Origin: Candidatus Saccharimonadota bacterium
GTDB lineage: Bacteria > Patescibacteriota > Saccharimonadia > Saccharimonadales > Saccharimonadaceae
DNA: 64,000 bases
Reading direction: 5' to 3'
Assembly (NCBI GenBank): GCA_017406775.1
Contig: JAFQXV010000014.1
Coordinates: 22,962-86,961, forward strand
Made by a program: the position numbers and the translations under genes. A model generated the notes under the pieces. The model was not told the origin of the DNA and did not search any database. It saw only the letters and a list, made by a program, of their open reading frames with translations. Of this stretch, positions 33,498-58,488 are shown in pieces (the stretch's first letter is position 1; every line of letters begins with the position of its first letter).

Positions 33498-34745
33498 GTG
33501 ATAAAGATAGAAAAAATAATCCCTGGCGGTCAGGCTTTGGGGCAAATGGAAGACGGCAAAAAAATCCTCTTTTGGAATGCCTTGCCAGGAGAAAATGTAA
33601 TAGAATATAATATAACTAAGCAAAAATCTCATTACTGTGAGGCTATTGCTACGTCAGTCATTAATCAATCAGATAAACGTATTACACCTAAAGATGATTG
33701 TTTTTTATCTACTTCCCCTTGGCAGATTATTGACTGGGATTATGAAAATGATCTCAAAACAGATTTAATAGTTGAAATTTTCCGTGAACACGGAATTATT
33801 ATAGATAAACCTAATAATTTTTCGGATAACCAAGAATATTTTTACCGTAATAAAATGGAATATGCACTTTATTGGGATCAACAAACTTCTAAGATTCAAC
33901 TAGCTTTTCGTCATAGAGGAAGCCATAAGAAATTACCTATCTTTAAATCTTCCATAGAGCGTCCAGAGATTTTTGCTGCCGCTCAAAATATCATAGACGA
34001 ACTCAATCAAAAACATGAAGAAGCTCGCAGATACCAAACCCTTCTCTTACGCTCTAATCAAAAAGGTGAAGTTTCCGGCGGCCTTTACGAAAATCATCAG
34101 CCACATCCTAAATTTAAAAATTTAAGTGATGAAATTTTAGGCTATCATTATTCTTATTCTCCTAATGGATTCTTTCAAATTAATTTACCAGTTTATGAAC
34201 TCGCTCTTAAAGAAATAAAAAAAATCATTAAAACGGACGAAGTTTTAGATTTATACGCAGGTGTTGGCACAATCGGTCTTTCTATTGCTCGTGATAGAAA
34301 ACTCACTCTTGTAGAGGTAGATAAATTTGCCTTTGAGGAATTAAATAAAAATGTTATAAATATAATTCACGCTGAGAACATAGAGCGAGTGTCAAGCTGG
34401 CACGAGCAGAAGGCGCCTCCCGTAAAGACGGGCGGGCGACTGGGTTCTCGGAGTGAATTAATTAATACTGTCTTATCAAGATCCGAAGAAGCTTTAGATT
34501 ATATTAAGCAAAACCAAACTGTAATTTTGGATCCTCCCCGTTCTGGCTGCGATGATAAACTTATCGAGAAATTAAACACCATTAAACCAACTACTATTAT
34601 TTATTTATCCTGCAATCCTTCTACTCAAGCTAGAGATGTTAAGAAATTGCTAGATAATTACAAAATAAAAGATATAAAAACATTCAATTTTTTTCCACGT
34701 ACACCACACATCGAAAATCTAGTAATTTTAAATAAATCATGCTAG
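33498..34745 (+). CDS. rlmD: RNA (uracil-5)-methyltransferase, RlmD/TrmA family, with internal insertion
   Basis: [44 protein letters not shown]. Confidence 0.8.
34364..34459 (+). repeat. In-frame palindromic insertion (family A) in rlmD-like gene
   Basis: Terminal IR AATTCACGCTGAGAAC / GTTCTCGGAGTGAATT (14/16); internal CAGAAGG and CCCGT-AAAG-ACGGG hairpin; 96 bp, ORF stays open. Confidence 0.85.
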
Positions 34746-34758
34746 AATAACAAGAGAC

Positions 34759-34848
34759 GGAAAGGTGGCCGAGTGGTTGAAGGCGCACGCTTGGAAAGCG
34801 TGTGTGCGAGCAATCGTACCGCAGGTTCGAATCCTGTCCTTTCCGCCA
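34759..34848 (+). tRNA. tRNA-Ser(GGA)
   Basis: GGAAAGG/CCTTTCC acceptor, CACGC-TTGGAAA-GCGTG, long variable arm, GGTTCGAATCC, CCA. Confidence 0.97.
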
Positions 34849-35009
34849 AATTAGCTAAAATAGAACTTGTTCTATTTTAGGAGATTTGAAGGAATGAAAT
34901 GGGATTATTTTATCCTGTCCTTTCCGCCAAATTAGCGACAGAAGAGCTTGCTCTTCTGGAGGTAATTTAAAGGAATGGATCTAGGATCAATATCCTGTCC
35001 TTTCCGCCA
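34831..35009 (+). repeat. Tandem copies of tRNA-Ser(GGA) 3' end
   Basis: ATCCTGTCCTTTCCGCCA at 34831, 34912, 34992 (period 81, 80). Confidence 0.95.
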
Positions 35010-35034
35010 TTTTTTCAGACAAATAGGAGTATAA

Positions 35035-35793
35035 GTGAGCGAAAATATTTTAATTGAGTTGAAAGGTTTAACCAAAAGTTATGGGTATGGCGATACGAAA
35101 TATTTCGCTCTAAAAGATTTTGACCTCACCATTAAACGCGGCGAATTTATTATGATTATGGGGCCATCGGGTTGTGGCAAAACTACACTACTGAATATCA
35201 TTGGCCTACTAGATCGTGCTACCAGAGGTGAATATATTTTAAATGGCGAAAATGTTGCCAATATTTCTATGCGTCGTCAAGCCAAACTTCGTGCTAAAAA
35301 GATTGGCTTTGTCTTTCAGAATTTTAATCTAATAGAAGATTTACCGATTATTGATAATGTTTCCCTCCCTTTAGTTTATACTGGCTATTCTAAAACCGCA
35401 CAACTCAAAAACGCCTCATCTGCGCTCAGGCGCTTTCATCTTCAAGAAAAAGAATACTACTTACCATATCAACTATCCGGTGGTCAGCAGCAAAGAGTAG
35501 CAATAGCACGTGCTATTGTGAATGACCCTGAAATTATTTTGGCAGATGAGCCTACTGGTAACCTAGACTCACGCTCGTCTCATGTTGTGATGGAAGAGCT
35601 AAAGGCCATCCATGAAGAAGGCAACACTATTATTATGGTTACCCATAATCCGGCACTTACTGTTTATGCTACCCGTGTTATTAATATGTTGGATGGTCAA
35701 ATTGATACCGATATTAAAACTGTAGAAGATCAAAACCTTCCCCAACCCATTAGCGTCAAAATTAAAAAACGTAAAAAATCTCGGAGAAAATAA
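35035..35793 (+). CDS. ABC transporter ATPase (MacB/LolD-like)
   Basis: [33 protein letters not shown]. Confidence 0.95.
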
Positions 35794-37026
35794 ATGGCTA
35801 CTTTATTTAGGACTCATCTTAGATTGGCACGTACTTCTATCAAAGAGAATCGTACTCGTTCATTTTTAACTTGTCTCGGTATTGCTATTGGGGTGGCAAG
35901 TATAGTACTAATACTTTCTCTTATGGGTGGGATTTCGAATCTTATTAAAAACGAAATTAGTGAAATAGGTTCAGACTTAATTGTGGTCAGACCAAACTCC
36001 ACTAAAGACTCCGTTACTAGTGTAATAGAAGAATTAACATCATCAAATTCCTTCCAAAATAGTAGTCTTAGTATTAAAGATGTAGATGAAATAAAAAAAT
36101 TAGAAGATATTTCCGCCGTTGCACCAATCGCTATTTCGAATAATAAAATTGATTCGGAAAAAAACAATCTTTCCTCGGTTCAAATTTTAGGGACCAATTC
36201 TGATTTTATTAAGATACAACCTATAGCCCTCCACTACGGCTCATTCTTAAACGATGAGAACGAGGAGAAAACTGTTGTCCTTGGTCGTACATTATCTTTA
36301 GCATTATTTAACACAATCAATAGTACTATAGGTAAAACGATTACTATTATGGGCGAAAAATTCATGATAGTAGGTGTTTTAGATGAAGTGGATAAATCAA
36401 TTAATTTCGATAATATAGATTTCGATAACGCTGCAATCATTAATATCAAACATCTTAATAAAATTGCCGAAACCGCCCAAATTCAACAAATTAATATAAA
36501 AGCTAAAAATACTGATAGTCTCGGCCAAATTTCTGATAATATCAGGAATACTCTCACTAATCAAAAGTTGGGTGATCAAAATTTTACCGTCTCTTATGGT
36601 GATAGTATTATGCATCCCGCCAGTTCACTATTTATGATAGTGTCAGGTATGCTTACTCTGGTGGCCGCAATTTCACTTATTGTAGGTGGAATTGGAGTAA
36701 TGAATATTATGTTGGTATCTGTAGCCGAAAGATCACATGAAATTGGTGTAAGAAAGGCCGTGGGGGCTTCTTCGCGTAATATTTTAATGCAATTCTTATT
36801 TGAGGCTCTTATTTTATCTCTTATGGGCGGCATTTTAGGCCTTCTGCTTGGCTATATTTTGGCATTTATTCTATCCACTATTACCCCATTTTCACCATAC
36901 ATTAGCTGGCATATTATTGCTGTCACTTTTCTTACCACTACATTAATAGGAATTATTTTTGGTATCTATCCCGCAATTAAAGCGGCGGCCAAAAATCCCA
37001 TCGATTCCCTTAGACATTATCGCTAG
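35794..37026 (+). CDS. ABC transporter permease (MacB/FtsX-like)
   Basis: RSFLTCLGIAIGV, GGIGVMNIMLVSVAER..EIGVRKAVGA. Confidence 0.93.
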   Translation: MATLFRTHLRLARTSIKENRTRSFLTCLGIAIGVASIVLILSLMGGISNLIKNEISEIGSDLIVVRPNSTKDSVTSVIEELTSSNSFQNSSLSIKDVDEIKKLEDISAVAPIAISNNKIDSEKNNLSSVQILGTNSDFIKIQPIALHYGSFLNDENEEKTVVLGRTLSLALFNTINSTIGKTITIMGEKFMIVGVLDEVDKSINFDNIDFDNAAIINIKHLNKIAETAQIQQINIKAKNTDSLGQISDNIRNTLTNQKLGDQNFTVSYGDSIMHPASSLFMIVSGMLTLVAAISLIVGGIGVMNIMLVSVAERSHEIGVRKAVGASSRNILMQFLFEALILSLMGGILGLLLGYILAFILSTITPFSPYISWHIIAVTFLTTTLIGIIFGIYPAIKAAAKNPIDSLRHYR

Positions 37027-37048
37027 TTTACGTGCTATAATATCTCTT

Positions 37049-38293: not shown

Positions 38294-38294
38294 A

Positions 38295-39044: not shown

Positions 39045-39143
39045 AATACCCTTATTATATCACTTGTTTATCAGTTTTCAACCTAATTCATCTTGACACT
39101 AATGTGTAATTCAGTTATTAAATAAAGTAGGTTTATAAAAAAA

Positions 39144-40690: not shown

Positions 40691-40767
40691 GTGCCCGTAG
40701 CTCAGCTGGATAGAGCGTTTGCTTGCGGAGCAAAAGGTCGTAGGTTCGAATCCTGTCGGGCATACCA
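40691..40767 (+). tRNA. tRNA-Arg(GCG)
   Basis: GTGCCCG/CGGGCAT acceptor, TTTGC-TTGCGGA-GCAAA anticodon arm, GGTTCGAATCC, CCA. Confidence 0.93.
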
Positions 40768-40852
40768 TAACAGAAAAAACAAGAATTTATTCTTGTTTTT
40801 TGTGTTTTGGGATGGTCGAAAAAGGATCCCCATCCTGTCGGGCATACCATAA
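40750..40852 (+). repeat. Copy of tRNA-Arg 3' end
   Basis: ATCCTGTCGGGCATACCATAA at 40750 and 40832 (period 82). Confidence 0.95.
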
Positions 40853-41790: not shown

Positions 41791-44514
41791 ATGAGATTTT
41801 CGAGTAGTTATGAGCCGGGGGAGTACGAATCAGACATTTATGCTGCATGGGAAGCGTCTGGTATTTTTAATCCTAAAGTCCCCACTGTACCAATAGATAA
41901 TAATAGCGATGGCAGTGATGACAGAGTAAAAAAATCCAACCAAACATTTTCAATCGTTATGCCGCCACCAAATGCAAATGGTAATCTTCATATTGGCCAT
42001 GGACTTACTATCGCACTAGAAGACTCTCTTACTCGGTATTACCGACTTAAAGGCGATAGTACTTGGTATATTCCCGGAGCTGATCATGCTGGTTTCGAGA
42101 CCTGGGTAGTTTATGAGCGCGAGCTAGAAAAACAAGGCCATACTAGATTTGAATACTCAAGAGATGAACTATATGCTCGCGTTTGGGACTTTGTGGCTAA
42201 ACAGCGTGGTAATATGGAATTGCAATTACGTGCCCTTGGGGCGTCTTGTTCTTGGGATGATCTCACTTTTACTTTGGACGAAAATGTTATAGACCGTGTT
42301 TATACTACTTTTGAAAAAATGTGGAATGATGGACTAATCTATAGAGGTGAAAAGTTAGTTAATTATTGCCCCAAGCATCAAACTGCCTTTGCAGATATAG
42401 AAGTGGAACATCAAGATGAGAAAGGTACCCTTTGGGATATCGCCTACCAGTATGATGGTGGAGAGATTATAGTTTCCACCACTAGACCGGAAACGCTATT
42501 CGGGGATGCTGCCGTGGCTGTAAACCCAGAGGATAAACGTTATCAAAATTTACTAGGTCAAAAAGTTAAACTGCCACTAACTGATCGCGAAATTCCAATT
42601 ATTGCCGATGAACACGCTGATCCCGAATTTGGCACTGGAGCAGTTAAAATTACCCCAGCACACGATTTTGATGATTTTGAAGTAGGCGAGCGCCATAACC
42701 TTCCCCGCTTACAGGTAATTGCTGAAAACGGCACAATGGTAAACGTTCCAGAAGAATTTAATGGTCTAACTACTACAGAATGTCGCAAAAAAGTCCTTAA
42801 AACTCTAAAAGAGCAAAATCTATTAAGAGGTGAAAGGAAAATTGATCACGCTGTAGCGCATTGCTATAAATGTGGTACTACTATTGAGCCAATGCTTAAG
42901 GAACAATGGTTCATTGATGTAAAACAGTTAGCTAAGTTAGCGATAGACGCCATAGAACAAGATAAAATCAAATTCCATCCTGCCAACAAAAAGAACATTT
43001 TGATTAATTATTATAAAGGGCTTAAAGATTGGAATATTTCACGTCAAATTCCATGGGGTATTGCTATTCCAATGTTTCGCAAAGTTGATTTATCTGCCAC
43101 CGACGAACCAGATTGGATTTTTGATCGTCGTACTAATCTCCAGGAAATTGAAAAAGCTGGTGTTAAATACGTCCGCGATGAAGATACCTTTGATACATGG
43201 TTCTCTAGTTCGCACTGGCCAATAGTTTGTACGGATTGGGACGAAAATAACTTCAGTCCTTACTACCCATTAAATGTTATGGAGACTGGCGCTGATATTC
43301 TATTTGCCTGGGTTGCACGCATGATCATGATGGGGCTTTACGTTACCGGGGAGGTTCCGTTTAAAGAAGTATACCTACACGGCCTAGTTTTGGATGAACA
43401 TGGTAAGAAAATGAGTAAGAGCAAAGGCAACGTTATCAATCCTATGGATCTCGTCACTAAATATGGTTCAGATGCATTTCGTCTGGGTATTTTAAGGGGC
43501 CGTTCCGCTGGCATGAACCAAGCCTTTAGCGAAAACTCCGTCATCGCTGGCCGCAATCTCTGTAATAAACTCTGGAATATTTCTCGCCTCATTCAGTCGA
43601 TGACTGATGAAACTGATATTAATTTTGAAGTTTCAGAGACCGTGCCCCGCGAGGGTTACGACCCGAGCGAAATGAGCGAAGCTCATGACGATGGGTCTGA
43701 GCGAATGGGGTCAAAAAAACTTCAAAATAATATCAATTACACTTCTAATAATATGGGTGAAGACTGGATTTGTCGTGAAATTAACGAGTGTGTTTCTCAA
43801 GTAGAAAAAGACATGAAGGCTTATCGTTTTGCTGAAGCAGTAGAAGTTTTATATCAAACCATCTGGGACAAGTACGCAGATTGGTTCCTGGAAACTCAAA
43901 AGGTTTATAAAAATATCCCATTATTAAAAACCACTCTCGAAACGCTCCTAATCACACTTCATCCCTTTGCTCCATTTGTAACGGAAACCATCTGGCAAAA
44001 TCTCAGTTGGACGGAAGGTTTTATAGCTGCAGCTAAATGGCCCTCTAAGCTAAAATTTGACCCAATTTCGGCCGAAGAATTCGAAAGCATAAGAACAATC
44101 GTGTCTGAGGTTAGAGGCACCTTACAAGCCCTTCCAGGCACCAATAATGTAAAAAAATACGGGCTATTATACGACAATGATAGTATTGTGAATGAAAATA
44201 TGCTAATAATTAAAAATCTCACCAAAGTCCCAAGTATTAATTCGCTAAATGGCAATCCACGTGGCCTTAGAATTGCGTTAGCTAATCATGAAATCTATTT
44301 AGACGTATCAGAAGATATCGTCATGGAATACAAGGAAACTCTTACAGAAAAAATCCTCTCTGTCGGTAAAGAACTGGACGCGCTTAATGCTCGTCTAATG
44401 AATCCTAATTATGTGGATAGAGCCCCCGCTCACCTCGTTAAAGAAACCAGGGATGGCGTCAAAGAGAAAGAGTCCCTAATTAATCGCCTAAAACAACAAT
44501 TAGAGTTAATCTAA
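41791..44514 (+). CDS. valS: Valine--tRNA ligase with internal insertion
   Basis: PPPNANGNLHIGH, DWNISRQ, DTWFSS, KMSKS. Confidence 0.97.
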   Translation: MRFSSSYEPGEYESDIYAAWEASGIFNPKVPTVPIDNNSDGSDDRVKKSNQTFSIVMPPPNANGNLHIGHGLTIALEDSLTRYYRLKGDSTWYIPGADHAGFETWVVYERELEKQGHTRFEYSRDELYARVWDFVAKQRGNMELQLRALGASCSWDDLTFTLDENVIDRVYTTFEKMWNDGLIYRGEKLVNYCPKHQTAFADIEVEHQDEKGTLWDIAYQYDGGEIIVSTTRPETLFGDAAVAVNPEDKRYQNLLGQKVKLPLTDREIPIIADEHADPEFGTGAVKITPAHDFDDFEVGERHNLPRLQVIAENGTMVNVPEEFNGLTTTECRKKVLKTLKEQNLLRGERKIDHAVAHCYKCGTTIEPMLKEQWFIDVKQLAKLAIDAIEQDKIKFHPANKKNILINYYKGLKDWNISRQIPWGIAIPMFRKVDLSATDEPDWIFDRRTNLQEIEKAGVKYVRDEDTFDTWFSSSHWPIVCTDWDENNFSPYYPLNVMETGADILFAWVARMIMMGLYVTGEVPFKEVYLHGLVLDEHGKKMSKSKGNVINPMDLVTKYGSDAFRLGILRGRSAGMNQAFSENSVIAGRNLCNKLWNISRLIQSMTDETDINFEVSETVPREGYDPSEMSEAHDDGSERMGSKKLQNNINYTSNNMGEDWICREINECVSQVEKDMKAYRFAEAVEVLYQTIWDKYADWFLETQKVYKNIPLLKTTLETLLITLHPFAPFVTETIWQNLSWTEGFIAAAKWPSKLKFDPISAEEFESIRTIVSEVRGTLQALPGTNNVKKYGLLYDNDSIVNENMLIIKNLTKVPSINSLNGNPRGLRIALANHEIYLDVSEDIVMEYKETLTEKILSVGKELDALNARLMNPNYVDRAPAHLVKETRDGVKEKESLINRLKQQLELI
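43614..43735 (+). repeat. In-frame palindromic insertion in valS
   Basis: TGATATTAATTTTGAAGTTT / AAACTTCAAAATAATATCA terminal IR; internal GGGT-TACG-ACCC and ATGAGC-GAA-GCTCAT hairpins. Confidence 0.85.
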
Positions 44515-46383: not shown

Positions 46384-47445
46384 ATGAAGTTTATTCATCT
46401 AAACGCAACCGAATACTCTAAATTTGCCGATAAAAGCCCCTATAAATCGTTTCTCCAGACTGCAGAAATCGCCAAATTAAGAGAAGAGAATGGTTGGGTA
46501 GCATATTATTTTGGGGTAGAAAAAGACAACAAGATAATCGCTGCAGCTATGGTGGTAGCTAAACCCACTTTTCTTGGTAAATCCACCTATTATATTCCAG
46601 GTGGACCACTCTTAGATTACGAGGATACGGCCGTAGTAAACTTTTTCTTTAAAAATCTCAAAAATTATGCTAAATCTCACAATGGCTATTTACTTCATAT
46701 CGAACCATATTACGAATTAATTGAACGCGATCGTGATGGCAAGAAAAAACCAGATGGCTTCAATCATCAAAAGGCTCTCGGTAACCTAAAAAAACTTGGT
46801 TTTCTACCTACGCATTCAGATAATCCAAAATATCTATTTGTTTTAAATATCAAAAATAAAAAAGAAGACGAACTATTTGCTAGCTTTAAACAAAATACCC
46901 GTAACCTTATTAGTCGCGCTACTAGAAAGGGGGTTGTAGTTCGTGAGATTGGCAGGGAAGAGCTGAATAGTTTTAAGCAAATTACCGCATCAACCTCAGA
47001 GCGTCGTCACTTTAGTGATAAATCTTTAGATTATTACGAAACGATGTATGATTTATTTGCAAAAAAAGACGAAGTTAAATTTATCATTGCAGAAATAAAC
47101 GACAAAAAGCCAATCCCAGTAGCCGCCGCCATGTTTATGACTTACGGCGATGAAGTTATCTATCTATTTTCTGGTAGCGATGAAAAATATATGAAAGAAT
47201 ACAATGCCCAATATGCTATTCAATGGTATATGATTAAATATGCCATCAAAAATAACTTCAAACGCTATAATTTCTATGGCATTCAAGGCCTCCCAGATCC
47301 AAATAAACCAGGTTACGGTATCTATAAATTTAAAAAAGGCTTTGGTGGTCACGTGGTAGAACTAATCGGCGCTTATGAATTGCCATTAAATAGATTTTTT
47401 TATAATACTCACAAAATTTTATCAAAAATAAAGCATCTAAAATGA
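46384..47445 (+). CDS. FemAB/MurM-family aminoacyl transferase
   Basis: FLQT, YIPGGPLLDY, FKQNTRNLI, YNFYGI, GIYKFKKGF. Confidence 0.92.
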   Translation: MKFIHLNATEYSKFADKSPYKSFLQTAEIAKLREENGWVAYYFGVEKDNKIIAAAMVVAKPTFLGKSTYYIPGGPLLDYEDTAVVNFFFKNLKNYAKSHNGYLLHIEPYYELIERDRDGKKKPDGFNHQKALGNLKKLGFLPTHSDNPKYLFVLNIKNKKEDELFASFKQNTRNLISRATRKGVVVREIGREELNSFKQITASTSERRHFSDKSLDYYETMYDLFAKKDEVKFIIAEINDKKPIPVAAAMFMTYGDEVIYLFSGSDEKYMKEYNAQYAIQWYMIKYAIKNNFKRYNFYGIQGLPDPNKPGYGIYKFKKGFGGHVVELIGAYELPLNRFFYNTHKILSKIKHLK

Positions 47446-49835
47446 ATTTATCAGGTCTCACATCTAAACAAGTTAAAGTAAAAAAAGAACAGGGAAGAAT
47501 TAACCGTGTTCCAGGTAAAAACACCAATTCAATTGGCAAAATAATACTAAAAAACACCTTAACCATTTTTAATTTAGTTAATATCATCCTAGCCATATTG
47601 ATCATTTCTGTTGGTGCCTATAAAAACCTCCTCTTTGTTCTAATTGCTATAGCAAACACCCTAATTAGTATAATTAACGAAATTCGTGCCAAGAAAACCG
47701 TCGATAAAATGCGTCTAATTGCCGAAAAACAACCTACGGTGATTAGAGAAGGTAAAAACATCCAGATTAAACAATCCGAAATCGTAGACGGCGACCTCAT
47801 AGTCTATGGTTTTGGGGATCAGGTTGTGGTGGATGCGCAAATTGAACAGGGAAGCGTAGAAGTTAATGAGTCTTTTATCACTGGTGAGCAAGACAATGTC
47901 CTTAAAAAACCAGGCGATAAATTGATTTCCGGTAGTTTTATAGTTTCAGGAACATGTAAAGCTACTGTTACCGCTGTTGGGGCCGAAAACTTCATCAATA
48001 AGCTAGAATCGAGCGCGCATACCATAAAAACCGCAGATTCTAAACTTTTTACTATTATGAATAACATCGTCAAATATATTTCAATTATACTTATTCCAAT
48101 TGGCGTTCTTCTGCTTTGGGCACGTTTTCGTGTACCAGACACTACTCCTGAAGTTGCAGTCACTAGTACAGTCGCTTCACTTATCAATATGATTCCAGAG
48201 GGTCTAATCCTCCTCACCTCATCCGTTCTCGCACTAGCCACTATTCGTCTTTCACGTCAAAAAGTTTTAGTCCAAGATCTTTACTCAATTGAAACTCTAG
48301 CCCGTATAGACTGCATAGCACTAGATAAAACTGGTACGCTTACCACCGGCAGAATGACCGTAAAAGATATAATTCCAGCAGAAGGCCACACAAAAAATGC
48401 CCTAGAAAAAGCACTCAAGCTTATTTTAAGCGCAACAGCTACCGATAACGCTACAAGTACCGCCTTAAAAGAAAAACTGCTTAAAAAGGCAAAATTTAAG
48501 CCCACGGAGCAAATCATAGAATTTATTCCATTTTCATCCGATCGAAAATATTCCGGTGTTCGTACCAAAGATGCTACTTACCTTATGGGGGCTCCCGAAA
48601 TTATTGCTGGTAATACACCAGATTTTCCAGGCACTTTCCGCATCCTCGCGGTAGTGAAAGACGAACACCAAAAAGGTGGTTTAGAGGAATCTGTCGGAGG
48701 TTACGACCGAGACAGAAGGAGCGCGTCCCCCGTAACGACGGGCGAGCGCGACTCCGTGTCCGATAAACCACCTTTTGATGTTTTAGGTTATATTCTCCTC
48801 GAAGACGAACTTCGAAAGGATGCCGAAGAAATTATAAATTATTTTTACAAAAACGATGTTGATATTAAAATTATCTCTGGCGACAATTTAAAAACAGTAG
48901 AAACCATTGCTAAAAATACTGGCATTAAAAACATCTCCGGTATCGATCTTTCCACTATAAAAGGCGATATTAATTATGAAAAATTAGTCAAAAATTATAA
49001 TATTTTTACTCGTGTTAAGCCCGCCCAGAAGAAATCATTGATTCTAACCCTTAAAAAGCTAGGTAAGACCGTTGCTATGACCGGTGACGGCGTTAATGAT
49101 ATTCTGGCTATGAAAGAAGCTGATTGCTCTATCGCAATCGGAGAGGGCTCCGATGCTGCTAGGCGTTCCGCTAAACTTGTTCTTTTAAGTAATGATTTTG
49201 CTGGCGTACCCAAAATAATCGCTGAGGGTCGTCAAACCATCAATAATCTAGAGCGTTCTACTACTTTGTTTATCGCTAAAACTGTTTACGCCTCCATTTT
49301 GGCAGTAGTTTTTATCTTCTTACCATTCAGGTCTCCATTTGCTTCACCCGTAGAAATGTCGCTTCTCAATTTTGCCTGCATTGGCTTTCCGGGCCTTATA
49401 CTCGCCCTAGAACACAATACTAGCCGCATTAAAAATCTCTTTGTTAAAAACATCCTGCAATACTCTGTTCCGGTCGGTCTTACTATCTCTATAGCAATGA
49501 TCGTTTTGTCTTGTCTTACCCATAATAATTTTTTCCCAGTACACGAATTGTCCACCATTGCCATTTTTGTTACCTTTATCGTTGATTTAGCCTTGATTTA
49601 TCGTATCTCTAGACCGCTTACTCCGCTCCGTAGTGCACTCCTGATTACTATTATCGGTATTATAGTCGCCGCTTTTGTTATTCCATTTTTACATGATTTC
49701 TTTGATTTTATTTATCTTGGCCGCAATGGGATTATTATCCTTGCAGTCACAGCTGTCCTGTCACTAGTAATTTTTGAAGTCATCCATCATTTAGTTCGCT
49801 ATTTCTCGTTACGTTTTGATAAAAAATCTTACTAA
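47442..49835 (+). CDS. P-type cation-transporting ATPase with internal insertion
   Basis: ESFITGE, IPEGL, DKTGTLT, ISGDN, MTGDGVND. Confidence 0.96.
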   Translation: MNLSGLTSKQVKVKKEQGRINRVPGKNTNSIGKIILKNTLTIFNLVNIILAILIISVGAYKNLLFVLIAIANTLISIINEIRAKKTVDKMRLIAEKQPTVIREGKNIQIKQSEIVDGDLIVYGFGDQVVVDAQIEQGSVEVNESFITGEQDNVLKKPGDKLISGSFIVSGTCKATVTAVGAENFINKLESSAHTIKTADSKLFTIMNNIVKYISIILIPIGVLLLWARFRVPDTTPEVAVTSTVASLINMIPEGLILLTSSVLALATIRLSRQKVLVQDLYSIETLARIDCIALDKTGTLTTGRMTVKDIIPAEGHTKNALEKALKLILSATATDNATSTALKEKLLKKAKFKPTEQIIEFIPFSSDRKYSGVRTKDATYLMGAPEIIAGNTPDFPGTFRILAVVKDEHQKGGLEESVGGYDRDRRSASPVTTGERDSVSDKPPFDVLGYILLEDELRKDAEEIINYFYKNDVDIKIISGDNLKTVETIAKNTGIKNISGIDLSTIKGDINYEKLVKNYNIFTRVKPAQKKSLILTLKKLGKTVAMTGDGVNDILAMKEADCSIAIGEGSDAARRSAKLVLLSNDFAGVPKIIAEGRQTINNLERSTTLFIAKTVYASILAVVFIFLPFRSPFASPVEMSLLNFACIGFPGLILALEHNTSRIKNLFVKNILQYSVPVGLTISIAMIVLSCLTHNNFFPVHELSTIAIFVTFIVDLALIYRISRPLTPLRSALLITIIGIIVAAFVIPFLHDFFDFIYLGRNGIIILAVTAVLSLVIFEVIHHLVRYFSLRFDKKSY
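48671..48776 (+). repeat. In-frame palindromic insertion (family A) in P-type ATPase
   Basis: Perfect 13-bp IR AAAAGGTGGTTTA / TAAACCACCTTTT; arms TCTGTC..GGT-TACG-ACC..GACAGA and CCCGT-AACG-ACGGG. Confidence 0.9.
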
Positions 49836-50063: not shown

Positions 50064-51353
50064 CTATTCTTCGATTGATATTCTGGGATAAATATTTAAG
50101 CTATAGGGGTCAACTGGCTTAACTCCAGTTTGTATCTCAAAATAACAAGCTGCTGCTACCATTGCTCCATTATCACCAGAAAGAGAAGTAGCGGGGAAAA
50201 ATACAGGGACATTCGGGGATGTTTCATTTTGTGCCATAAGTTTCGGCGAGCGCCCCTGAGCGTGTTCCGTATTAAATATTTCGAGTATTTGATTCCTGAG
50301 TTCTTGATTCGCACTCACCCCTCCAGCAATTACGATCGATTGTGTTTCGGGATATTCTTCTAGCGCCATCTCCAATTTTTCACATAAAATATCTACCGCA
50401 GTTTTCTGGAACGATGCTGCAAAATCACACACCTGTTGCGGAGTTAATAAGTCTTTTAATTTATGAGATGGATAAGAGATCGGCACTTTGGCCTCTTTTT
50501 GTACAGCCCTCAGTACTGCAGTTTTTAATCCGGAAAACGAAAAATCCAACCCCTCAACCTTTGGATGTGGCAACCTGTATTTATTGAGATCGCCCGGCCG
50601 AAGGTTAGTGTGTTCTTTGAGGACCATAAGCTTGACCGAACGGCCTTGAGTGTGTCCGAGAAGAACACACTGACCTTCGGCTGCCATACTAATACTAGGT
50701 CCTCCAGGATAAGGTAGCCCTAAAATTTTTGCCACCTTATCAAAACACTCTCCCACCGCATCATCATGAGTAGTGCCTATAATCTCAAACTGATTATGAC
50801 CACGCATATATAAAATTTGTGTATGTCCCCCTGATATTACTAAAGCCAACAAGGGGAATTGCGGGTGTTTAAGAATAGTGCTTTGAGGGGGCTCTTGGAG
50901 GCTACTGCCGAGAGCGTAGGACGCCGAGCCTCGTGAGGACGGGCGTGAGGACGTCCGGTCCCAAGAAACACTATTCCGAGCATCTGTGCTTAACCAGTTT
51001 GCATACACATGTGATTTCAGATGATGTACGGCGTATAAAGGCTTATTGTGTAGTATTGCTAAAGTTCTTGCCGTTAATGTCCCAATCAAAAGAGAACCGA
51101 GCAGCCCCGGTGCATGAGTTACCGCAATGGCATCTATATCATCCCAATTACATGACGCATTGGCAAGGGCCTTATTAATAACCGGCATAATCGCTTCAAG
51201 ATGCGATCTTGCGGCTACTTCGGGAATTACACCACCATACTCAGCAAAAATATCAATTTGACTCACAACCACATTAGAGAGGATAGAAACCCCATCTTCT
51301 ACTACGGCTGCTGCTGTCTCGTCGCAACTGGTCTCAATTCCCAAAATTTTCAT
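50064..51353 (-). CDS. tsaD: t6A synthesis protein TsaD with three internal insertions (429 aa)
   Basis: ILGIETSCDET, EVAARSH, HHLKSH, VISGGHT, DDAVGECFDKVA, FSFSGLKT, AGGVSAN, DNGAMV; start at ATG 51353. Confidence 0.96.
   Translation of the reverse strand: MKILGIETSCDETAAAVVEDGVSILSNVVVSQIDIFAEYGGVIPEVAARSHLEAIMPVINKALANASCNWDDIDAIAVTHAPGLLGSLLIGTLTARTLAILHNKPLYAVHHLKSHVYANWLSTDARNSVSWDRTSSRPSSRGSASYALGSSLQEPPQSTILKHPQFPLLALVISGGHTQILYMRGHNQFEIIGTTHDDAVGECFDKVAKILGLPYPGGPSISMAAEGQCVLLGHTQGRSVKLMVLKEHTNLRPGDLNKYRLPHPKVEGLDFSFSGLKTAVLRAVQKEAKVPISYPSHKLKDLLTPQQVCDFAASFQKTAVDILCEKLEMALEEYPETQSIVIAGGVSANQELRNQILEIFNTEHAQGRSPKLMAQNETSPNVPVFFPATSLSGDNGAMVAAACYFEIQTGVKPVDPYSLNIYPRISIEE
50211..50286 (+). 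repeat. Decayed palindromic insertion (family B) in tsaD
   Basis: Core CCATAAGTTTCGGCGAGCGCCCCTGAGCGTGTTCC aligns with the copy inside 50595-50683; degenerate flanking IR; ends approximate. Confidence 0.7.
50595..50683 (+). repeat. Palindromic insertion (family B) in tsaD
   Basis: GCCGAAGGTTAGTGTGTTCTT / AAGAACACACTGACCTTCGGC (20/21); core CCATAAGCTTGACCGAACGGCCTTGAGTGTGTCC. Confidence 0.88.
50864..50984 (+). repeat. Palindromic insertion (family A) in tsaD, antisense to the ORF
   Basis: GAATAGTG / CACTATTC stem with G-T extension; core GGAGGCTACTGCCGAG and CTCGT-GAGG-ACGGG. Confidence 0.8.
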
Positions 51354-52676: not shown

Positions 52677-52696
52677 TAGACGACAAGCTTTTCATT

Positions 52697-52722: not shown

Positions 52723-52752
52723 TGTATCTAAAATATATCACCAAATGAATAA

Positions 52753-53184: not shown

Positions 53185-53216
53185 GCAAAGATTATACCAT
53201 AACCTTTGCAAAAAAA

Positions 53217-53381
53217 TGGCTGGACCGGCAGGATTCGCACCGAGCTTTAGCGAGGTCCGAATCCTCGTTTTTACAGTTTTTTACATAAAAAAATGGCTGG
53301 ACCGGCAGGATTCGATTCGAAGAACGAATCCTCGCTTTTCCAGTGTATCTGAAAGAGACATGGCTGGACCGGCAGGATTCG
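53217..53381 (-). repeat. Tandem copies of tRNA-Gln 3' end
   Basis: TGGCTGGACCGGCAGGATTCG at 53217, 53294, 53361 (period 77, 67). Confidence 0.95.
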
Positions 53382-53435
53382 AACCTGCGAATGCTGGGAC
53401 CAAAACCCAGTGCCTTACCGCTTGGCGACGGTCCA
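53361..53435 (-). tRNA. tRNA-Gln(TTG)
   Basis: TGGACCG/CGGTCCA acceptor, CTGGG-TTTTGGT-CCCAG, GGTTCGAATCC, CCA. Confidence 0.97.
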
Positions 53436-53553
53436 ATATCAATTATTCTATCACAATCAGTCTGCCCCGTCAAAACTTCACAAAAGCAGGGAAAAATGAT
53501 ATAATATGCAATCATCCGTTAACCGTATCGATACTCAACCGAGAGGAGCAAAA

Positions 53554-53820: not shown

Positions 53821-53910
53821 CCCACCGGCCCCGGCACAGTCCGGGGCCATATCCTTTTATGAGACCTGATTCCTCTTGTGTTTTTCTCTAAAGTGTGCTA
53901 TAATTACTCT

Positions 53911-56103
53911 ATGGCTACCAAAAGGCGAAAATCAACAAGAAAGACCAAAAAGCGCACCAAAGAAGCGCCAGTAGAGTACGAGTTGCCGGGCGGTTTTTGG
54001 CGTCAAATTGCCGCAATTTTAATGATCGCCTTAGCATTATTTTGCGTGATTACTTGGTTTGGTCAAGGCGGCACTATCCTTAATAGTATCCATAAATTTA
54101 TTCTTAATGTTCTTGGTTTTGCTACTTATTTTATTCCAGTTCTTCTGGTTTATCTCGCTATTAAGAAACTTCGTACCGAAGACAATCGCCTTGCAGCCCC
54201 AGTCTACGTTGCTGGGTTTTTAATGATTATTTGGATATCCGGTATTGCTGCCATTTGGAAAAATGGCGGCGTTATTGGTGAGTGGCTTAATTCTCTAACC
54301 ACTAAAGTCTTAAGTCAAGGCGTAGTAATCTTTATCTATTTTATTCTAATTTTTATCACTACTGCATTCTTGCTCCAGCTTTCACCTGTAACCTTCTTTA
54401 AAGGAACCAAAAATTTAGTCAAACACGGCAACCGCGCGGATTTAGAAGAACCTAAAAAGAACAAAAAACTTGGCCAACTCGATATTAAAGTTAATTCAGG
54501 CGTTGGCCCAATCGAGCCTTCACCAAAAATTAATCGTATGGCAAAAGCTACGCCAAAGGCCGAGCCTGTTAAAGTGGAAGAAAAAGCTCTTGTGGCTGTC
54601 TCTGACCCAGACTGGAAAATGCCGTCTACTAACCTTCTTTCCAAGAAACAATCTCCAGCCGATGCTGGCAATATTCAACAAAATGCCTTCATTATTAAAA
54701 ATACTTTTGCCGAATTTGGCATAGATGTAGAAATGGAAGGTGCTAATGTCGGTCCTCGTGTTACACAATATACCTTGCGCGCCCCTGGTGGTATTAACTT
54801 AGCTAAAATTGCAGCTCGCGATAAAGAACTTGCCTATAAATTATCTGCTACTACGGTACGTATTGAGGCACCAATCCCAGGTACTCAATTAATCGGCGTG
54901 GAGGTGCCTAACACTAGATCTGCCTCCGTTTCATTACGCGGCATCATAGAATCAGACGAATGGCGTAAAAGCAACGGCCCGCTCACTTTTGCGGTAGGAA
55001 AAGATATTTCCGGTAAACCAGTTGTGGCTGATTTAGCTGATATGCGTCACTTACTAATCGCCGGTACTACTGGTTCTGGTAAGTCCGTCATGACGAATAC
55101 CCTAATCATGTCACTGCTTTATCGTAATTCACCCGCCGATATGCGTCTAATTATTGTAGATCCAAAACAGGTAGAAATGGTAGCATATAATAATATTCCA
55201 CACCTCTTAACTCCAGTAATTACCGATACTACTAAGGCTCTTTCTGCCATGAAATGGGCTGCTGGAGAAATGGATCGCCGGTACAAACTAATGGCCGAGG
55301 AAAAAGTCAAAAAGATTTCTGATTACAACAAAAAAATGCAGAAAAAATCTTCCGAAGATTCATCTACCACTGACGATGCCGAAAAAGATTCTAAGGGAGG
55401 CAAAATGCCATACATTGTTATCGTGATTGATGAAATGTCCGATCTTATGATGCAGGCTGGCAAGGAGCTAGAGCCTTTGATTGTGCGTATTGCCCAGCTT
55501 GGGCGTGCCGCAGGCATGCACCTGGTACTTGCCACCCAGAAACCAGTTGTAAAGGTTATTACTGGTCTTATTAAAGGAAATATTCCTTCCAGGATTGCTT
55601 TCCGTGTACTTACTTCGATGGAATCTCGTATTATTCTTGATCTGTCAGGTGCCGAAAAATTACTAGGTCAGGGTGATATGCTACTTTCCACCGAAGAAAC
55701 CCAAAACGGTCCAGAACGTATTCAGGGTGCCTGGACCCCAGACGAGGACATCGAAAAGGTTACCAACTTCTTACGTAGCCAGCGACCCGCTGATTACAAT
55801 GATGAGGTTATCGCTCAAACCGTAGCTATTAAAGGTATGGGTGGTGGTGGCGACATGGATGGCCTTGGTCGTACATTCGACCCTAATGATCCACTAGTAC
55901 GTAAAGCCGTAGAAATTTCTATTAATAATGGTAAATTCTCCACTGGTATGCTTCAGACTCGTCTCAGTAAAGGTCATGGTTGGGTTTCTGGTCTAGGTTT
56001 TTGGCTAGAAGATATTGGCGTAGTTGGCCCTGTTAATGGCAATAAACCTCGTGATCTTCATGTTACTTCCATGGAAGAATTCGACGAAATGGCCGGACTA
56101 TAA
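53911..56103 (+). CDS. ftsK: DNA translocase
   Basis: N-terminal TMs, GPRVTQY, RIEAPIPG, HLLIAGTTGSGKS, IDEMSDLM, ATQKP; start at ATG 53911. Confidence 0.97.
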   Translation: MATKRRKSTRKTKKRTKEAPVEYELPGGFWRQIAAILMIALALFCVITWFGQGGTILNSIHKFILNVLGFATYFIPVLLVYLAIKKLRTEDNRLAAPVYVAGFLMIIWISGIAAIWKNGGVIGEWLNSLTTKVLSQGVVIFIYFILIFITTAFLLQLSPVTFFKGTKNLVKHGNRADLEEPKKNKKLGQLDIKVNSGVGPIEPSPKINRMAKATPKAEPVKVEEKALVAVSDPDWKMPSTNLLSKKQSPADAGNIQQNAFIIKNTFAEFGIDVEMEGANVGPRVTQYTLRAPGGINLAKIAARDKELAYKLSATTVRIEAPIPGTQLIGVEVPNTRSASVSLRGIIESDEWRKSNGPLTFAVGKDISGKPVVADLADMRHLLIAGTTGSGKSVMTNTLIMSLLYRNSPADMRLIIVDPKQVEMVAYNNIPHLLTPVITDTTKALSAMKWAAGEMDRRYKLMAEEKVKKISDYNKKMQKKSSEDSSTTDDAEKDSKGGKMPYIVIVIDEMSDLMMQAGKELEPLIVRIAQLGRAAGMHLVLATQKPVVKVITGLIKGNIPSRIAFRVLTSMESRIILDLSGAEKLLGQGDMLLSTEETQNGPERIQGAWTPDEDIEKVTNFLRSQRPADYNDEVIAQTVAIKGMGGGGDMDGLGRTFDPNDPLVRKAVEISINNGKFSTGMLQTRLSKGHGWVSGLGFWLEDIGVVGPVNGNKPRDLHVTSMEEFDEMAGL

Positions 56104-56171
56104 AGCCCCACTCTTAAAAACCTCTTTTATTTATTGTAAAATTATGCTATAATCAATCCAATATTAGCTCA

Positions 56172-56213
56172 ACAGGTGTGTCAACCCGAGAGAAAACGGA
56201 GAACAGCACTTGT
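56172..56213 (+). promoter_or_regulatory. Possible S6:S18 autoregulatory leader hairpin
   Basis: ACAGGTGT/GCACTTGT stem enclosing AACCCG..CGG just before the rpsF SD. Confidence 0.4.
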
Positions 56214-56231
56214 TTTAACCAAAGGAGTTTT

Positions 56232-56597
56232 ATGAAAGACTATGAACTCACAGTCCTCTTTCATCCTGATTTAGAGATGAATCTGGAACCCGCCTTGGAT
56301 AAGGTCAAAAAAATCATTGAGACTAGTGGCGGCAAAATCACCAAGGAAAGCAACGAAGGCAAGAAGCACATTGCTTATACCATCAAAGGCCAAGATTTTG
56401 CTGTTTACTATTACATTGATTTATCCTTACCCGCAGAGGCGCCAGCTAAAATTTCCTCCACTTTCAATATTACGGATGAAATTTTACGCTACTTATTAGT
56501 TCGCGTAGATGGGCGTAAGGCTAAATTAGCTGCTCGTCGTGCGGCTGAAGCCCCCAAAGAAGAGGAAAAATCATCAACTGCAGAAAAAGGAGAATAG
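56232..56597 (+). CDS. rpsF: 30S ribosomal protein S6
   Basis: MKDYELTVLFHP, AYTIK, DEILRYLLVR; AAGGAG SD. Confidence 0.96.
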   Translation: MKDYELTVLFHPDLEMNLEPALDKVKKIIETSGGKITKESNEGKKHIAYTIKGQDFAVYYYIDLSLPAEAPAKISSTFNITDEILRYLLVRVDGRKAKLAARRAAEAPKEEEKSSTAEKGE

Positions 56598-56600
56598 ATA

Positions 56601-57050
56601 ATGCGCGGTTTTAGCAAAGCAATTATTACTGGTAATCTTACGCGTGATCCAGAACTTCGTACCACACCAAATGGTGCCTCTGTGTGTAGTTTCTCGGTAG
56701 CCGTAAATCGTACCTATCGTGATGCCAGCGGGGAACAAAAGGAAGACGTTTCCTTTATTGATTGTTCTGCTTGGGGCAAACTGGGTGAGATGATTAATCA
56801 ATACGCTAAGAAAGGTTCTGGCGTATTAGTATCAGGCCGCTTAGATCAACGCAGTTGGGAAGACAAGGCCACCGGTCAAAAACGCTCCCGCGTAGAAATA
56901 GTCGCAGAAGACTTTAATTTTACCGGTTCAGCTCGAGATAATGCTGGCGGCAGTTCTAGTAGCTTTAGTTCTGCTAACGATGCCGTAGATGCTGGCATGC
57001 CAGACGACATCCCAGACGAAGAAATCGACCTCAGTGATGTCCCATTTTAA
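56601..57050 (+). CDS. ssb: Single-stranded DNA-binding protein
   Basis: GNLTRDPELRTT, acidic tail DVPF. Confidence 0.98.
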   Translation: MRGFSKAIITGNLTRDPELRTTPNGASVCSFSVAVNRTYRDASGEQKEDVSFIDCSAWGKLGEMINQYAKKGSGVLVSGRLDQRSWEDKATGQKRSRVEIVAEDFNFTGSARDNAGGSSSSFSSANDAVDAGMPDDIPDEEIDLSDVPF

Positions 57051-57077
57051 TATAAATTTAACGAAGGAGAAAGATTC

Positions 57078-57275
57078 ATGAAAAAGATCAAAAGTGACCC
57101 AAATCTTTATTTCGATTATCGTGACGCAAAAACCTTACAACGATACATCGACGTTTACGGGCGTATTGAGCCAATCTCGAAAACTGGCCTATCCGCCAAG
57201 CAACAACGCCAACTAGCGGTAGCTATTAAGCGTGCTCGTCATTTAGCGCTTTTGCCATTTGTTTCTAATAGTTAA
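57078..57275 (+). CDS. rpsR: 30S ribosomal protein S18
   Basis: [31 protein letters not shown]. Confidence 0.97.
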
Positions 57276-57284
57276 GGAGTGGAT

Positions 57285-57845
57285 ATGTACGGACCAACGG
57301 ATTTAAAGAAAAATACACTAATTACCCTAGATGGGCAGCCATACAAAGTAGTAGAGTATTCTCAAAAAGTCATGGGGCGTGGTGGTTCGATCGTTAATGT
57401 AAAAGTTAAGAATTTAATCACTGGCGCCTTGCTCCCGAAGACTTTTAAGGGCCAAGAAAAAATAGAACCTGCAGAAGTTACCACTAAAAAGGTTCAGTAT
57501 CTTTACAAGGATGATGCTAAGTTCTATTTTATGGACCCAGAAAGTTTTGAGCAATACGAGCTTACTTCTGATATGGTTGGCGATTCCAAAGATTTTATGA
57601 AGGACGGCGATGAAATGGAAATCCAGTTCTATAATGGCACCCCAATTAATCTCGTTCTACCTAAAAATATTTGGCTTACGGTAACCTATACAGAAACTGC
57701 CGTTAAGGGGGATACTTCAACTTCTGTCATGAAAGATGCAACTCTAGAAACTGGCGTAGTTATAAAAGTCCCAGCTTTTATTAAAGAAGGCGATATCGTA
57801 TCAGTGGATACAGAAACCTATGCATACCGTGAACGCAAAAAATAG
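57285..57845 (+). CDS. efp: Elongation factor P
   Basis: LYKDD..FYFMDPESFEQ, KGDT, ATLETG..VPAFIKEGD. Confidence 0.96.
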   Translation: MYGPTDLKKNTLITLDGQPYKVVEYSQKVMGRGGSIVNVKVKNLITGALLPKTFKGQEKIEPAEVTTKKVQYLYKDDAKFYFMDPESFEQYELTSDMVGDSKDFMKDGDEMEIQFYNGTPINLVLPKNIWLTVTYTETAVKGDTSTSVMKDATLETGVVIKVPAFIKEGDIVSVDTETYAYRERKK

Positions 57846-58488
57846 AGGTTATTACAAAATTGAAGGCGCCGCTCGCGCCTTTAATTTTGATTTTAGAGAT
57901 AAAACCGTTTTAGACATCGGTTCTTCTACCGGTGGTTTTACGGAATATGCCCTAGAACATGGCGCAAAAAAAGTCATCGCCATAGAAAAGGGAACTAATC
58001 AAATGATAAAACCACTTCGTTACGATAAGCGTATCGAACTTCACGAAAAAACCAACATCTTCTCAGTGGGAACACAAGATAGTTCCAATCGAGGGAATCC
58101 GGAGGCTGGCAAGCCGAGGACGAGCGCCGGCCGCCCGTGGCGACGGGCCGGCCGGACGCGGCCCGAGATGGAACTATCTTGTGTTCCAGACGTGATCGTT
58201 GCAGACGTTTCATTCATTAGTCTCAAAAAAGTTTTATTACACGCAAAATTCCACTTATCAAACCAAAAAACCACTTTCCTCGTTATGCTTAAACCCCAAT
58301 TCGAAGCTAGGCCAGATCAGCTCAGCAAGGGGATTGTTAAAAACGAAAAAATCCGCCGTGAAATTATCAAAGAATTTGAGCAATGGCTAAAACAAAATAA
58401 TTTTATCATCGTAAAAAAACGCGACAACAGCCTGGAGGGAAAACACGGCAATTTAGAAAGATTTTACTGGCTAAATTTGTCAAAGTAA
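57820..58488 (+). CDS. tlyA: TlyA-family rRNA methyltransferase (no S4 domain) with internal insertion
   Basis: LDIGSSTGGFT, DVSFISL, LKPQFE, GKHGNLE; start uncertain. Confidence 0.85.
   Translation: MHTVNAKNRGYYKIEGAARAFNFDFRDKTVLDIGSSTGGFTEYALEHGAKKVIAIEKGTNQMIKPLRYDKRIELHEKTNIFSVGTQDSSNRGNPEAGKPRTSAGRPWRRAGRTRPEMELSCVPDVIVADVSFISLKKVLLHAKFHLSNQKTTFLVMLKPQFEARPDQLSKGIVKNEKIRREIIKEFEQWLKQNNFIIVKKRDNSLEGKHGNLERFYWLNLSK
58069..58187 (+). repeat. In-frame palindromic insertion (family A) in tlyA
   Basis: Perfect 19-bp IR GGAACACAAGATAGTTCCA / TGGAACTATCTTGTGTTCC; core CGGAGGCT-GGCA-AGCCGAG and GCCCGT-GGCG-ACGGGC. Confidence 0.92.

Follow-up and report, generated by a model that had tools for sequence, protein, structure and literature searches.

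Small GC-rich palindromic elements with site-specific terminal stems inserted in frame into housekeeping genes of Candidatus Nanosyncoccus-like Saccharibacteria

A stretch of 64,000 nucleotides from a Candidatus Saccharimonadota genome (contig JAFQXV010000014.1, referred to below as the window) carries seven short GC-rich segments within five housekeeping genes, and further copies of the same elements occur in related bacteria. These segments are interpreted here, as the most probable reading, as belonging to a superfamily of small, GC-rich, non-autonomous and selfish DNA elements that resemble the Rickettsia palindromic elements (RPEs) and whose movement, in single-stranded or hairpin form, is coupled to replication. 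Almost all surviving copies leave the reading frame of the host gene open. Each element combines a shared core with a terminal stem that is site-specific, since it differs between copies while the core is common to them. An earlier inspection of the letters without database searches (the sequence-only reading) had ventured, as its boldest guess, that this stem is generated at or from the target. Five comparisons between filled and empty sites, in which an arm of native flank faces an arm that repeats it in inverted form, indicate that the stem is indeed at least partly target-made.

All seven segments picked out by that reading are present in the window and lie within open reading frames (ORFs) that remain open, namely rlmD, valS, a P-type ATPase gene, tsaD (three segments) and tlyA (Table 1). 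With a GC content of 0.45-0.66, compared with 0.30-0.45 in the flanks, each segment forms a local GC spike. Six of them fold strongly, either as RNA or as single-stranded DNA (z between -5.1 and -9.7, matched by 0 of 200 shuffles), and deserve the name of palindrome that had been given to all seven; the exception is 50211-50286, a degraded remnant that does not fold (z = +0.45). A covariance model run with filters off recovers the elements at 58072, 48665, 50868, 43617, 34362 and 50600, all on the + strand. The core sequence CCCGTNNNGACGGG proposed for family A is found exactly or with one mismatch in the four family A copies, and has 15 matches at no more than two mismatches, whereas 3.8 would be expected; moreover, the rlmD element contains an exact CCCGTAAAGACGGG at 34419-34432. 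The initial grouping had to be corrected in part: the elements at 50595 and 50211 belong to a second, shorter family (family B) sharing the outer architecture, while the one at 43614, where the valS profile match is interrupted (at about aa 611), is a divergent, Y-shaped member. The element at 50595 displays a 24-bp stem, the tandem G.A and the short core GAGGACCATAAGCTTGACCGAACGGCCTTGAGTGTGTCCGAG, and the 50211 remnant aligns to the intact copies of sequences L014 and L037 with scores of 50-51, the maximum for shuffled sequences being 30. That the segments add peptides foreign to the host protein families is seen in alignments to solved structures, in which the extra stretches (residues 123-161, 228-257 and about 358-385 of TsaD and residues 81-121 of TlyA) sit between conserved blocks. 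A weak covariance-model match at 62389-62481 (pilB) has no fold and was rejected as an element.

Table 1. Positions of the elements, their parts and the replication origin context in the window
Feature	Position	Strand	Context and scores
Family A element	34363..34460	+	In frame, sense, in rlmD (33498-34745); fold z -5.1; covariance model R1 20.7 bits
Divergent Y-shaped element	43614..43735	+	In frame, sense, in valS (41791-44514); fold z -6.6; covariance model R1 23.2 bits, E = 2e-4
ATPase insert, 102 nt (34 codons)	48663..48764	+	P-type ATPase gene (47442-49835); covariance model 46.7 bits
ATPase terminal stem, 3' arm	48765..48784	+	Retained in element-less allele; codes KPPFDV
Decayed family B core	50211..50286	+	Antisense, tsaD loop 3; no fold; 31/36 identity to intact cores
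Family B element	50595..50683	+	Antisense, tsaD loop 2; fold z -9.7; covariance model R1 16.4 bits
Family A element	50864..50984	+	Antisense, tsaD loop 1 (tsaD 50064-51353, minus strand); fold z -5.3; covariance model 24.6 bits
Family A element, perfect 19-bp terminal stem	58069..58187	+	In frame, sense, in tlyA (57820-58488); fold z -8.9; covariance model 130 bits
Replication origin context	29319..31161	+	DnaA-box-like cluster 29319-29758, dnaA 29803-31161, then dnaN, recF; Pfam

The family extends well beyond the window. In a related set composed of the window and 80 related tsaD loci (81 sequences, 1.44 Mb, a sample of about 20 kb per genome), the strict core motif occurs in 84 copies, and covariance model R1 finds 109 copies, distributed over 55 of the 81 sequences. 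Metagenome contigs chosen by a degenerate pattern and then filtered with the covariance model add 36 R1 copies in L081-L160 and 8 in L161-L200. Elements measure about 80-125 nt, some reaching about 190 nt, and there is about one GC-rich hairpin insert per 13 kb. The secondary structure, set by hand on a gap-free alignment of 23 copies, is a three-way junction formed by one strand: a long terminal stem (P1) leads through a tandem G.A internal loop (5'-CGAG / 5'-CGAG) to a helix P2 of 3-5 bp, from which emerge a short hairpin (P3) with loops GGCA, UACG or UGCU and a long GC hairpin (P4) with single-nucleotide bulges and an invariant CCCGU-RRCG-ACGGG tip. The motif at the hairpin foot, (Y)CGAG, stands on both sides and forms the tandem G.A. 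This structure superseded that obtained with RNAalifold on a plain MAFFT alignment, which recovered only the P4 hairpin and misaligned the outer helices. Covariation is strong, with 84% of cells paired compared with 67% in shuffles and 201 double-change cells (reached by 0 of 500 shuffles), and the pairing score collapses once partners are slid by one to three columns. In a larger alignment, P4 pairs alternate freely, for example GC in 37 copies and CG in 35. The unpaired G.A, A52, C77 and A85 are conserved in about 85-92% of copies; together with G89, likewise unpaired and conserved, they make the fold strand-specific. The existence of 109 copies in 1.44 Mb and of this covariation disposes of the possibility that the core motif had neither further copies nor covarying pairs.

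Other members depart from this plan. Family B, known from 12 copies that include the 50595 element and the 50211 remnant, retains the P1 / G.A / P2 frame around a shorter core (GAGGACCATAAGCTTGGSCGARCGSCCTTGAGYGTGTCCGAG), and all its copies lie on the same chromosome strand. A third family, C, of about 190 nt, with the conserved sequences TTGAATTTTCAACACGTATATTCCTG and CCCAGCGTATGACGTGCTTGAAAATTCAAGTC around a variable GC hairpin inside a further site-specific stem, is observed in tsaD loop 1 of L004, L022, L043, L045, L052, L055, L057, L063 and L080 (mostly at about 10360-10560). Rfam 15 gave no match at the gathering score across the window and none at E <= 1 between 47.5 and 59 kb.

The relation of the elements to their host genes is highly regular. 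Among scored copies, 143 of 146 lie inside intact ORFs, and counts made set by set give 106 of 110 in tsaD neighbourhoods and all 36 in unrelated metagenome contigs; 97-98% are thus intragenic, and the sites are the same few loops of housekeeping proteins, such as valS, tsaD, rRNA methyltransferases and the P-type ATPase. Orientation with respect to the host gene is near random, with 63 sense and 43 antisense copies in tsaD neighbourhoods and 21 and 15, respectively, in metagenome contigs. Only about three of the six possible frames through an element, or half of them, lack stops; four frames are common (48/28/4 among sense and 28/20/2 among antisense copies), while the two that read stops in conserved parts (UAA/UGA in the loop) are avoided. 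Moreover, alleles differ in length by whole codons (102 nt, 33 nt). The encoded peptides differ between copies, as in SPVTTG and ARGDGP. Since the same core is found in unrelated proteins, in either orientation and with four of the six frames chiefly used, it is the nucleic-acid structure and not the peptide that is conserved, as the sequence-only reading had maintained. The inserts are probably translated as extra loop peptides and not spliced out, because a filter on the reading frame makes sense only with ribosomes reading through them. A search with valS turned up no RNA run, and the one metatranscriptome found with ftsK had no read coverage over any element.

Presence of the elements varies among relatives, with TsaD and ATPase loops being filled in some and empty in others. 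Aligned TsaD orthologues (340-475 aa) do not have loops of equal length: the same three loops are longer by 0-63 residues, all intermediate lengths being represented, and these loops hold different families, nested copies and half remnants. Loop 1 is filled in most relatives. Of the ATPase loops following 'AVVK', those of 27 species are empty, whereas about 35 species have inserts there, of up to 88 aa and in different frames. Variation also occurs between strains about 95% identical: contigs of runs X5 and X6 join 48662 directly to 48765, lacking the 102-nt ATPase insert, and their tsaD loop 1 contains a copy whose core matches the ATPase core of the window, not its tsaD core, enclosed by a different stem. 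The rlmD element is kept with few substitutions in such strains (runs X5-X7), and runs X5-X9 yielded no further empty sites for the rlmD, valS and tlyA elements. Seven intra-genome pairs have cores at least 91% identical (100% in one pair), and in six of these the identity of the terminal stems is 0.22-0.50, no better than chance (background 0.32). Likewise, two family B copies in L014 share a core and a 12-nt inner stem within different outer stems.

Elements also break and acquire sequence internally. Truncated and nested copies break at the P4 loop, and remnants with only the 3' half, broken at or near this loop, are found in tsaD loop 1 of L019, L020 and L078, in L072:2943-3116 and in L059:3668-3903, alongside element halves that are partly duplicated in direct orientation; this suggests that the hairpin tip is a place of breakage or template switching. 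A mini-insert of about 29 nt, in which a small hairpin comes after the motif GCCCCTTGGGACGC, resides within the P4 or P3 loop of family A elements at L018:10430, L059:1760, L029:3135, L017:10428 and 10485, and L125:361. Runs X6 and X7 have it also in the tlyA P4 loop (58141-58144), where it comes with a 4-nt CGAC duplication and adds 33 nt in frame; it is absent from the window. In runs X5-X7, short-read contigs stop and restart at the P4 tip with a 22-nt overlap (58131-58152); the elements therefore fragment de Bruijn assemblies of these genomes.

The origin of the terminal stem was approached through filled and empty alleles, with junctions read by eye since hairpin ends taken from minimum-free-energy folds with flanks are unreliable. 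In the ATPase gene, the element-less allele keeps the 3' arm (AAACCACCTTTTGATG...), and the 102 nt begin with a near-perfect inverted copy of about 20 nt of this downstream flank, followed by the family A core; the 5' end of the insert, GAACACCAAAAAGGTGGTTT, nearly equals the reverse complement of 48765-48784. At the N-terminus of valS, L074 reads DDR-LASRN-TYS with a linker of normal length, while L037 has 27 aa between DDR and LAGRS-TYS, composed of an inverted copy of the LAGRS-coding arm, then a short element-borne stem, and then the core. L014:14429 is an independent insertion into the same valS loop as in L037, and its native arm again codes for xGRS. The comparison of L059:6704 with L072 reveals the native flank GTTTCAGCTTC and an imperfect inverted copy on the other side of the core, whereas in L059:10928, compared with L050 and L072, the native arm lies 5' of the core. 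On the basis of these five comparisons, the outer stem arises by duplicating 9-20 nt of one flank, which may be that on either side, in inverted orientation. The five junctions lack any direct duplication of the target and, in these few cases, the junctions GAC/AAA, TAG/GCT and GTC/GTT have no clear common motif. Another filled/empty pair, L197/L175, was discarded, since it reflects a 110-nt deletion between AGAC repeats of a GC-rich organism and has no relation to the elements. Species that share an orthologous site have the same conserved stem but differ in core subfamily, which suggests that existing stems are re-used by incoming cores.

The elements also obey a strand rule. The 106 in-ORF copies of the tsaD neighbourhoods represent 13 distinct sites, and at all 13 the element occupies the same chromosome strand, for which the chance under independent random orientation is about 2 x 0.5^13. 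This strand, the + strand of the window, carries the G-rich strand of the element. The rule holds where the host gene lies on the opposite strand, as in tsaD, and in L014, L056 and L068, where valS is inverted relative to tsaD and the element strand is unchanged. The coincidence of DnaA boxes, dnaA-dnaN-recF and a change in GC skew (-0.2 to -0.4 left of the origin and about 0 right of it) places oriC within the window; the + strand right of about 29.5 kb is therefore the lagging-strand template. All window elements are in the right replichore, and no palindromic element occurs on either strand in the left replichore part of the window (1-27335). Concerning the host, the closest tsaD loci in a species-level genome collection (at most 73% identical in the best segment) all belong to metagenome-assembled genomes (MAGs) of Candidatus Saccharibacteria / Ca. 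Nanosyncoccus from the guts of sheep, goat, yak, buffalo and deer, one being Ca. Nanosyncoccus alces; an exact look-up of the TsaD of the window in the assembly collection gave no match. The host is a Ca. Nanosyncoccus-like Saccharibacterium, and the elements occur in ruminant-gut Saccharibacteria of the Ca. Nanosyncoccus (G3) type.

A mechanism can be proposed in which the core, as single-stranded or hairpin DNA, is mobilised or copied while the chromosome replicates and would be inserted in that form on the lagging-strand template. A fold-back stage would then copy 9-20 nt of one flank in inverted orientation, building the outer stem. In parvovirus-type hairpin transfer, an HUH Rep protein nicks at a set distance from a T- or Y-shaped hairpin, whose unfolding and copying generate an inverted copy. 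By a comparable route, a hairpin-capped break might be nicked off-centre, some 10-20 nt away, unfolded and filled in; alternatively, synthesis could run off, be primed anew by snap-back and then switch to the template again. Both routes would yield the arrangements U-D'-core-D or U-core-U'-D (U and D being the flanks), as observed. The likeness to parvovirus termini, a GC-rich three-way-junction hairpin with an inverted copy of adjacent sequence, is an analogy only and is offered as a known route; no Rep gene, linear replicon or sequence relation was seen here. Stems already in place may act later as landing pads for new cores, and the CGAG/G.A foot and the invariant P4 tip are candidate recognition sites for a protein. 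An HUH-type nuclease would be the obvious candidate for the mobilising enzyme, although host replication and repair alone could also suffice. The stronger claim that this constitutes a new way of moving DNA, by a self-propagating hairpin without fixed ends that builds its stem from inverted target flank at replication forks, is put forward tentatively, as a possibility with somewhat less than an even chance.

Several observations weigh against the interpretation as mobile, replication-coupled DNA. Three of the copied flanks lie 5' of the core and two lie 3' of it, which no simple polar mechanism fits. The 'empty' ATPase allele of X5/X6 is 4 aa longer than the common empty form and, given these extra residues and the half remnants elsewhere, some 'empty' alleles may be deletion products. 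Moreover, at an old site, L059:6812 compared with L050, the empty allele lacks both arms. The strand rule covers one chromosomal neighbourhood and one replichore segment, and 2 of 8 multi-copy metagenome contigs are mixed in orientation (L125, + - +, and L082). The putative translation of the inserts is read from frame and stop-codon conservation only, and identical cores within a genome could stem from gene conversion instead of transposition. Furthermore, no mobilising enzyme was found in the scanned window ORFs, the genomes being represented by samples of about 20 kb each. In agreement with the sequence-only reading, no transposase, reverse transcriptase or HUH domain was detected in those ORFs (most of those of at least 150 aa, with host genes compared with NCBIfam). 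A scan of IMG/VR with the core pattern returned 27 stretches, none of them confirmed by the covariance model, so that nothing points to carriage by a phage.

The chief competing explanation invokes gene conversion between copies of long standing; on this view the insertions are immobile, their cores being homogenised by conversion and their stems kept by compensatory change, with orientation and hot spots resulting from ancestry and selection. It would account for terminal stems conserved across species at orthologous sites around differing cores, for cores more alike within a genome than between orthologous sites, and for the concentration of the 13 sites in one conserved neighbourhood. Nevertheless, strains about 95% identical differ in the presence of the ATPase element and in the whole tsaD element, the same valS loop has received independent insertions with opposite gene orientations, the 33-nt mini-insert is polymorphic between close strains, and junctions with one native arm are not expected from conversion, so that this explanation is considered unlikely. 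[quoted passage not shown] While the small size, palindromic and non-coding nature and high copy number fit such elements, and the orientation bias recalls the IS200/IS605 and repetitive extragenic palindromic (REP) systems (HUH enzymes, single-stranded DNA), conserved terminal inverted repeats are missing and the ends differ in every copy. In addition, the five junctions have an inverted flank copy and no direct target duplication, 97-98% of copies are intragenic although REP/REPIN sequences are extragenic, and the window ORFs scanned contain no transposase.

The two remaining alternatives concern the product of the insert instead of its movement. The elements could be functional structured RNAs (introns, ribozymes or sequences excised by RNase III) removed from the mRNA, leaving proteins without extra peptides; the three-way junction, the tandem G.A, the conserved bulges, the UNCG/GNRA-like loops and the strong covariation are all features of such RNAs, and the long perfect stems would suit RNase III. 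However, about 40% of copies are antisense, where the mRNA carries the complement without G.A pairs. Keeping the frame open in 143 of 146 copies and avoiding stop-reading frames would be pointless if the inserts were spliced, elements gain or lose sequence in whole codons (102 nt, 33 nt), and Rfam has no match; this explanation is regarded as very improbable. Finally, the inserts lie in loops between conserved blocks and are rich in Arg, Gly, Pro, Ser and Ala, as would be expected of lineage-specific loops under protein-level selection, with the shared motifs as a coincidence of low-complexity GC-rich coding sequence. Such a coincidence has almost no chance of being correct and is already refuted by these data, since the same 75-nt core appears in unrelated proteins, in different frames and on both strands, covariation preserves base pairs and not residues, and presence or absence varies among close relatives.

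Comparison with known systems places the replication-coupled selfish elements proposed here among several relatives without identity to any. Ton-Hoang and colleagues are said to have tied IS200/IS605 insertion, in 2010, to the lagging-strand template, giving a replication-related orientation bias. In these insertion sequences each end has its own subterminal hairpin, and insertion takes place 3' of a fixed tetra- or pentanucleotide, the flank not being copied. The present elements share with them structure-defined ends, the absence of terminal inverted repeats and of direct duplication, and the bias towards the lagging-strand template, with orientation fixed relative to replication at 13 of 13 sites beside oriC (and mixed in 2 of 8 metagenome contigs), but they form one global hairpin and duplicate a flank in inverted form, and no conserved target motif was seen at the few junctions compared. 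MITEs possess conserved terminal inverted repeats and direct target-site duplications matching those of the parent IS. Classical representatives (Correia, ERIC, BOX, Nezha) are similarly non-autonomous, about 100-150 nt long, palindromic and occasionally intragenic, whereas here terminal inverted repeats are not shared (pairs with cores at least 90% identical have mostly <0.5 stem identity, against a background of 0.32) and direct duplication is lacking at the five junctions, though the P4-loop mini-insert does have one of 4 nt (CGAC). REPINs are described as extragenic, conserved over their whole sequence within a genome and provided with GTAG/CGTC heads (PMC3733652). Like REP/REPIN-RAYT systems, the elements are hairpin repeats thought to move single-stranded, with a short motif at the hairpin foot and a high copy number; unlike them, they are neither extragenic nor headed by GTAG or CGTC, having instead a CGAG foot that includes the tandem G.A, and the scanned ORFs of the window contain no RAYT.

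The closest parallel is provided by the RPEs, of which each family is said, in the summary given in PMC10969869 of Ogata et al. (2000, 2002), to encode a conserved peptide and to be conserved in sequence from end to end. Both systems consist of small palindromes in reduced genomes, with no known transposase; they interrupt unrelated housekeeping genes without loss of frame and presumably give rise to surface loops on translation. The in-frame palindromic repeat in coding genes is thus common to both, whereas the conserved peptide and the fixed frame and orientation are not found here: only the core is conserved, the stem is site-specific, and both orientations and mainly four of the six frames are used, which sets the elements apart from the RPEs so described, together with the Patescibacteria lineage, the three-way-junction core and the inverted flank duplication. 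The RPE-like label proposed initially consequently stands as an analogy of lifestyle, and not as family membership. A looser parallel exists with organelle palindromes (mitochondrial GC clusters, double-hairpin elements and those of Nematomorpha), in which GC-rich hairpins or perfect repeats are tolerated in coding genes of AT-rich, reduced genomes; in Nematomorpha mitochondria, both arms of the coding palindromes are translated and encode conserved protein regions, with no shared mobile core (PMC6649704), whereas the present elements have a conserved core and are dispersed in a bacterial chromosome. Full-text literature searches brought up no account of such elements in Saccharibacteria or Patescibacteria, nor was the inverted-flank signature of insertion found described for bacterial mobile DNA. 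The elements of this lineage belong to a known kind, in-frame palindromic selfish DNA, of which they seem to be a new form, while their insertion mechanism has a substantial chance of being new.

Additional features of the window complete its description. The origin region (27972-33485) includes yidC on the minus strand, five DnaA-box-like sites at 29319-29758 and two more after dnaA at 31173-31205. The left replichore (1-27335) encodes uvrA, a 1044-aa ORF without Pfam match and a cell-envelope polysaccharide cluster with GT2 glycosyltransferases, UDP-galactopyranose mutase, acyltransferases and an ABC-2 exporter, as well as a 726-aa ricin-type lectin repeat protein, a CotH kinase-like protein and a LytR-CpsA-Psr protein. 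The space that separates the LytR gene from the following ORF holds an AT-rich, perfect 28-bp inverted repeat (27339-27518, arms 124 nt apart) with a nested 21-bp repeat (27385-27405 / 27468-27488), a non-GC palindrome near the origin that is unlike the elements. Two successive imperfect hairpins sharing TCCGCCAAATTAGC (34841-34979) are located just downstream of tRNA-Ser(GGA), and a 31-nt imperfect palindrome (40756-40819) overlaps the 3' end of tRNA-Arg; these hairpins may be terminators or repeated tRNA-flank modules. Beside tRNA-Gln (53361-53435), 144 nt (53215-53360) are missing in run X6, with the joint in a 22-nt stretch fitting either side; this points to direct repeats between which sequence was deleted or duplicated, and has no connection with the hairpin elements. 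Moreover, TlyA of the window seems to lack the N-terminal S4-like domain, since its alignment to solved homologues begins only at about residue 60 of the latter and the start of its ORF overlaps the efp gene (57279-57845) at the end of that gene.

The genomes of Saccharibacteria and other Patescibacteria are among the smallest and most streamlined of bacteria, yet the present lineage tolerates these inserts, mostly in essential genes. The elements would thus offer a second, independent natural system, beside Rickettsia, in which selfish DNA creates protein loops. In practical terms, they break short-read assemblies at hairpin tips, inflate protein lengths in MAGs and could serve as strain markers. 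The combination of target-derived stems with a strand rule points to a single-stranded or hairpin mechanism unlike the known signatures of MITE, REP and IS605 elements and, if the tentative reading of a new mechanism were true, a hairpin would be providing an ultra-small symbiotic bacterium with new surface loops on its essential proteins.

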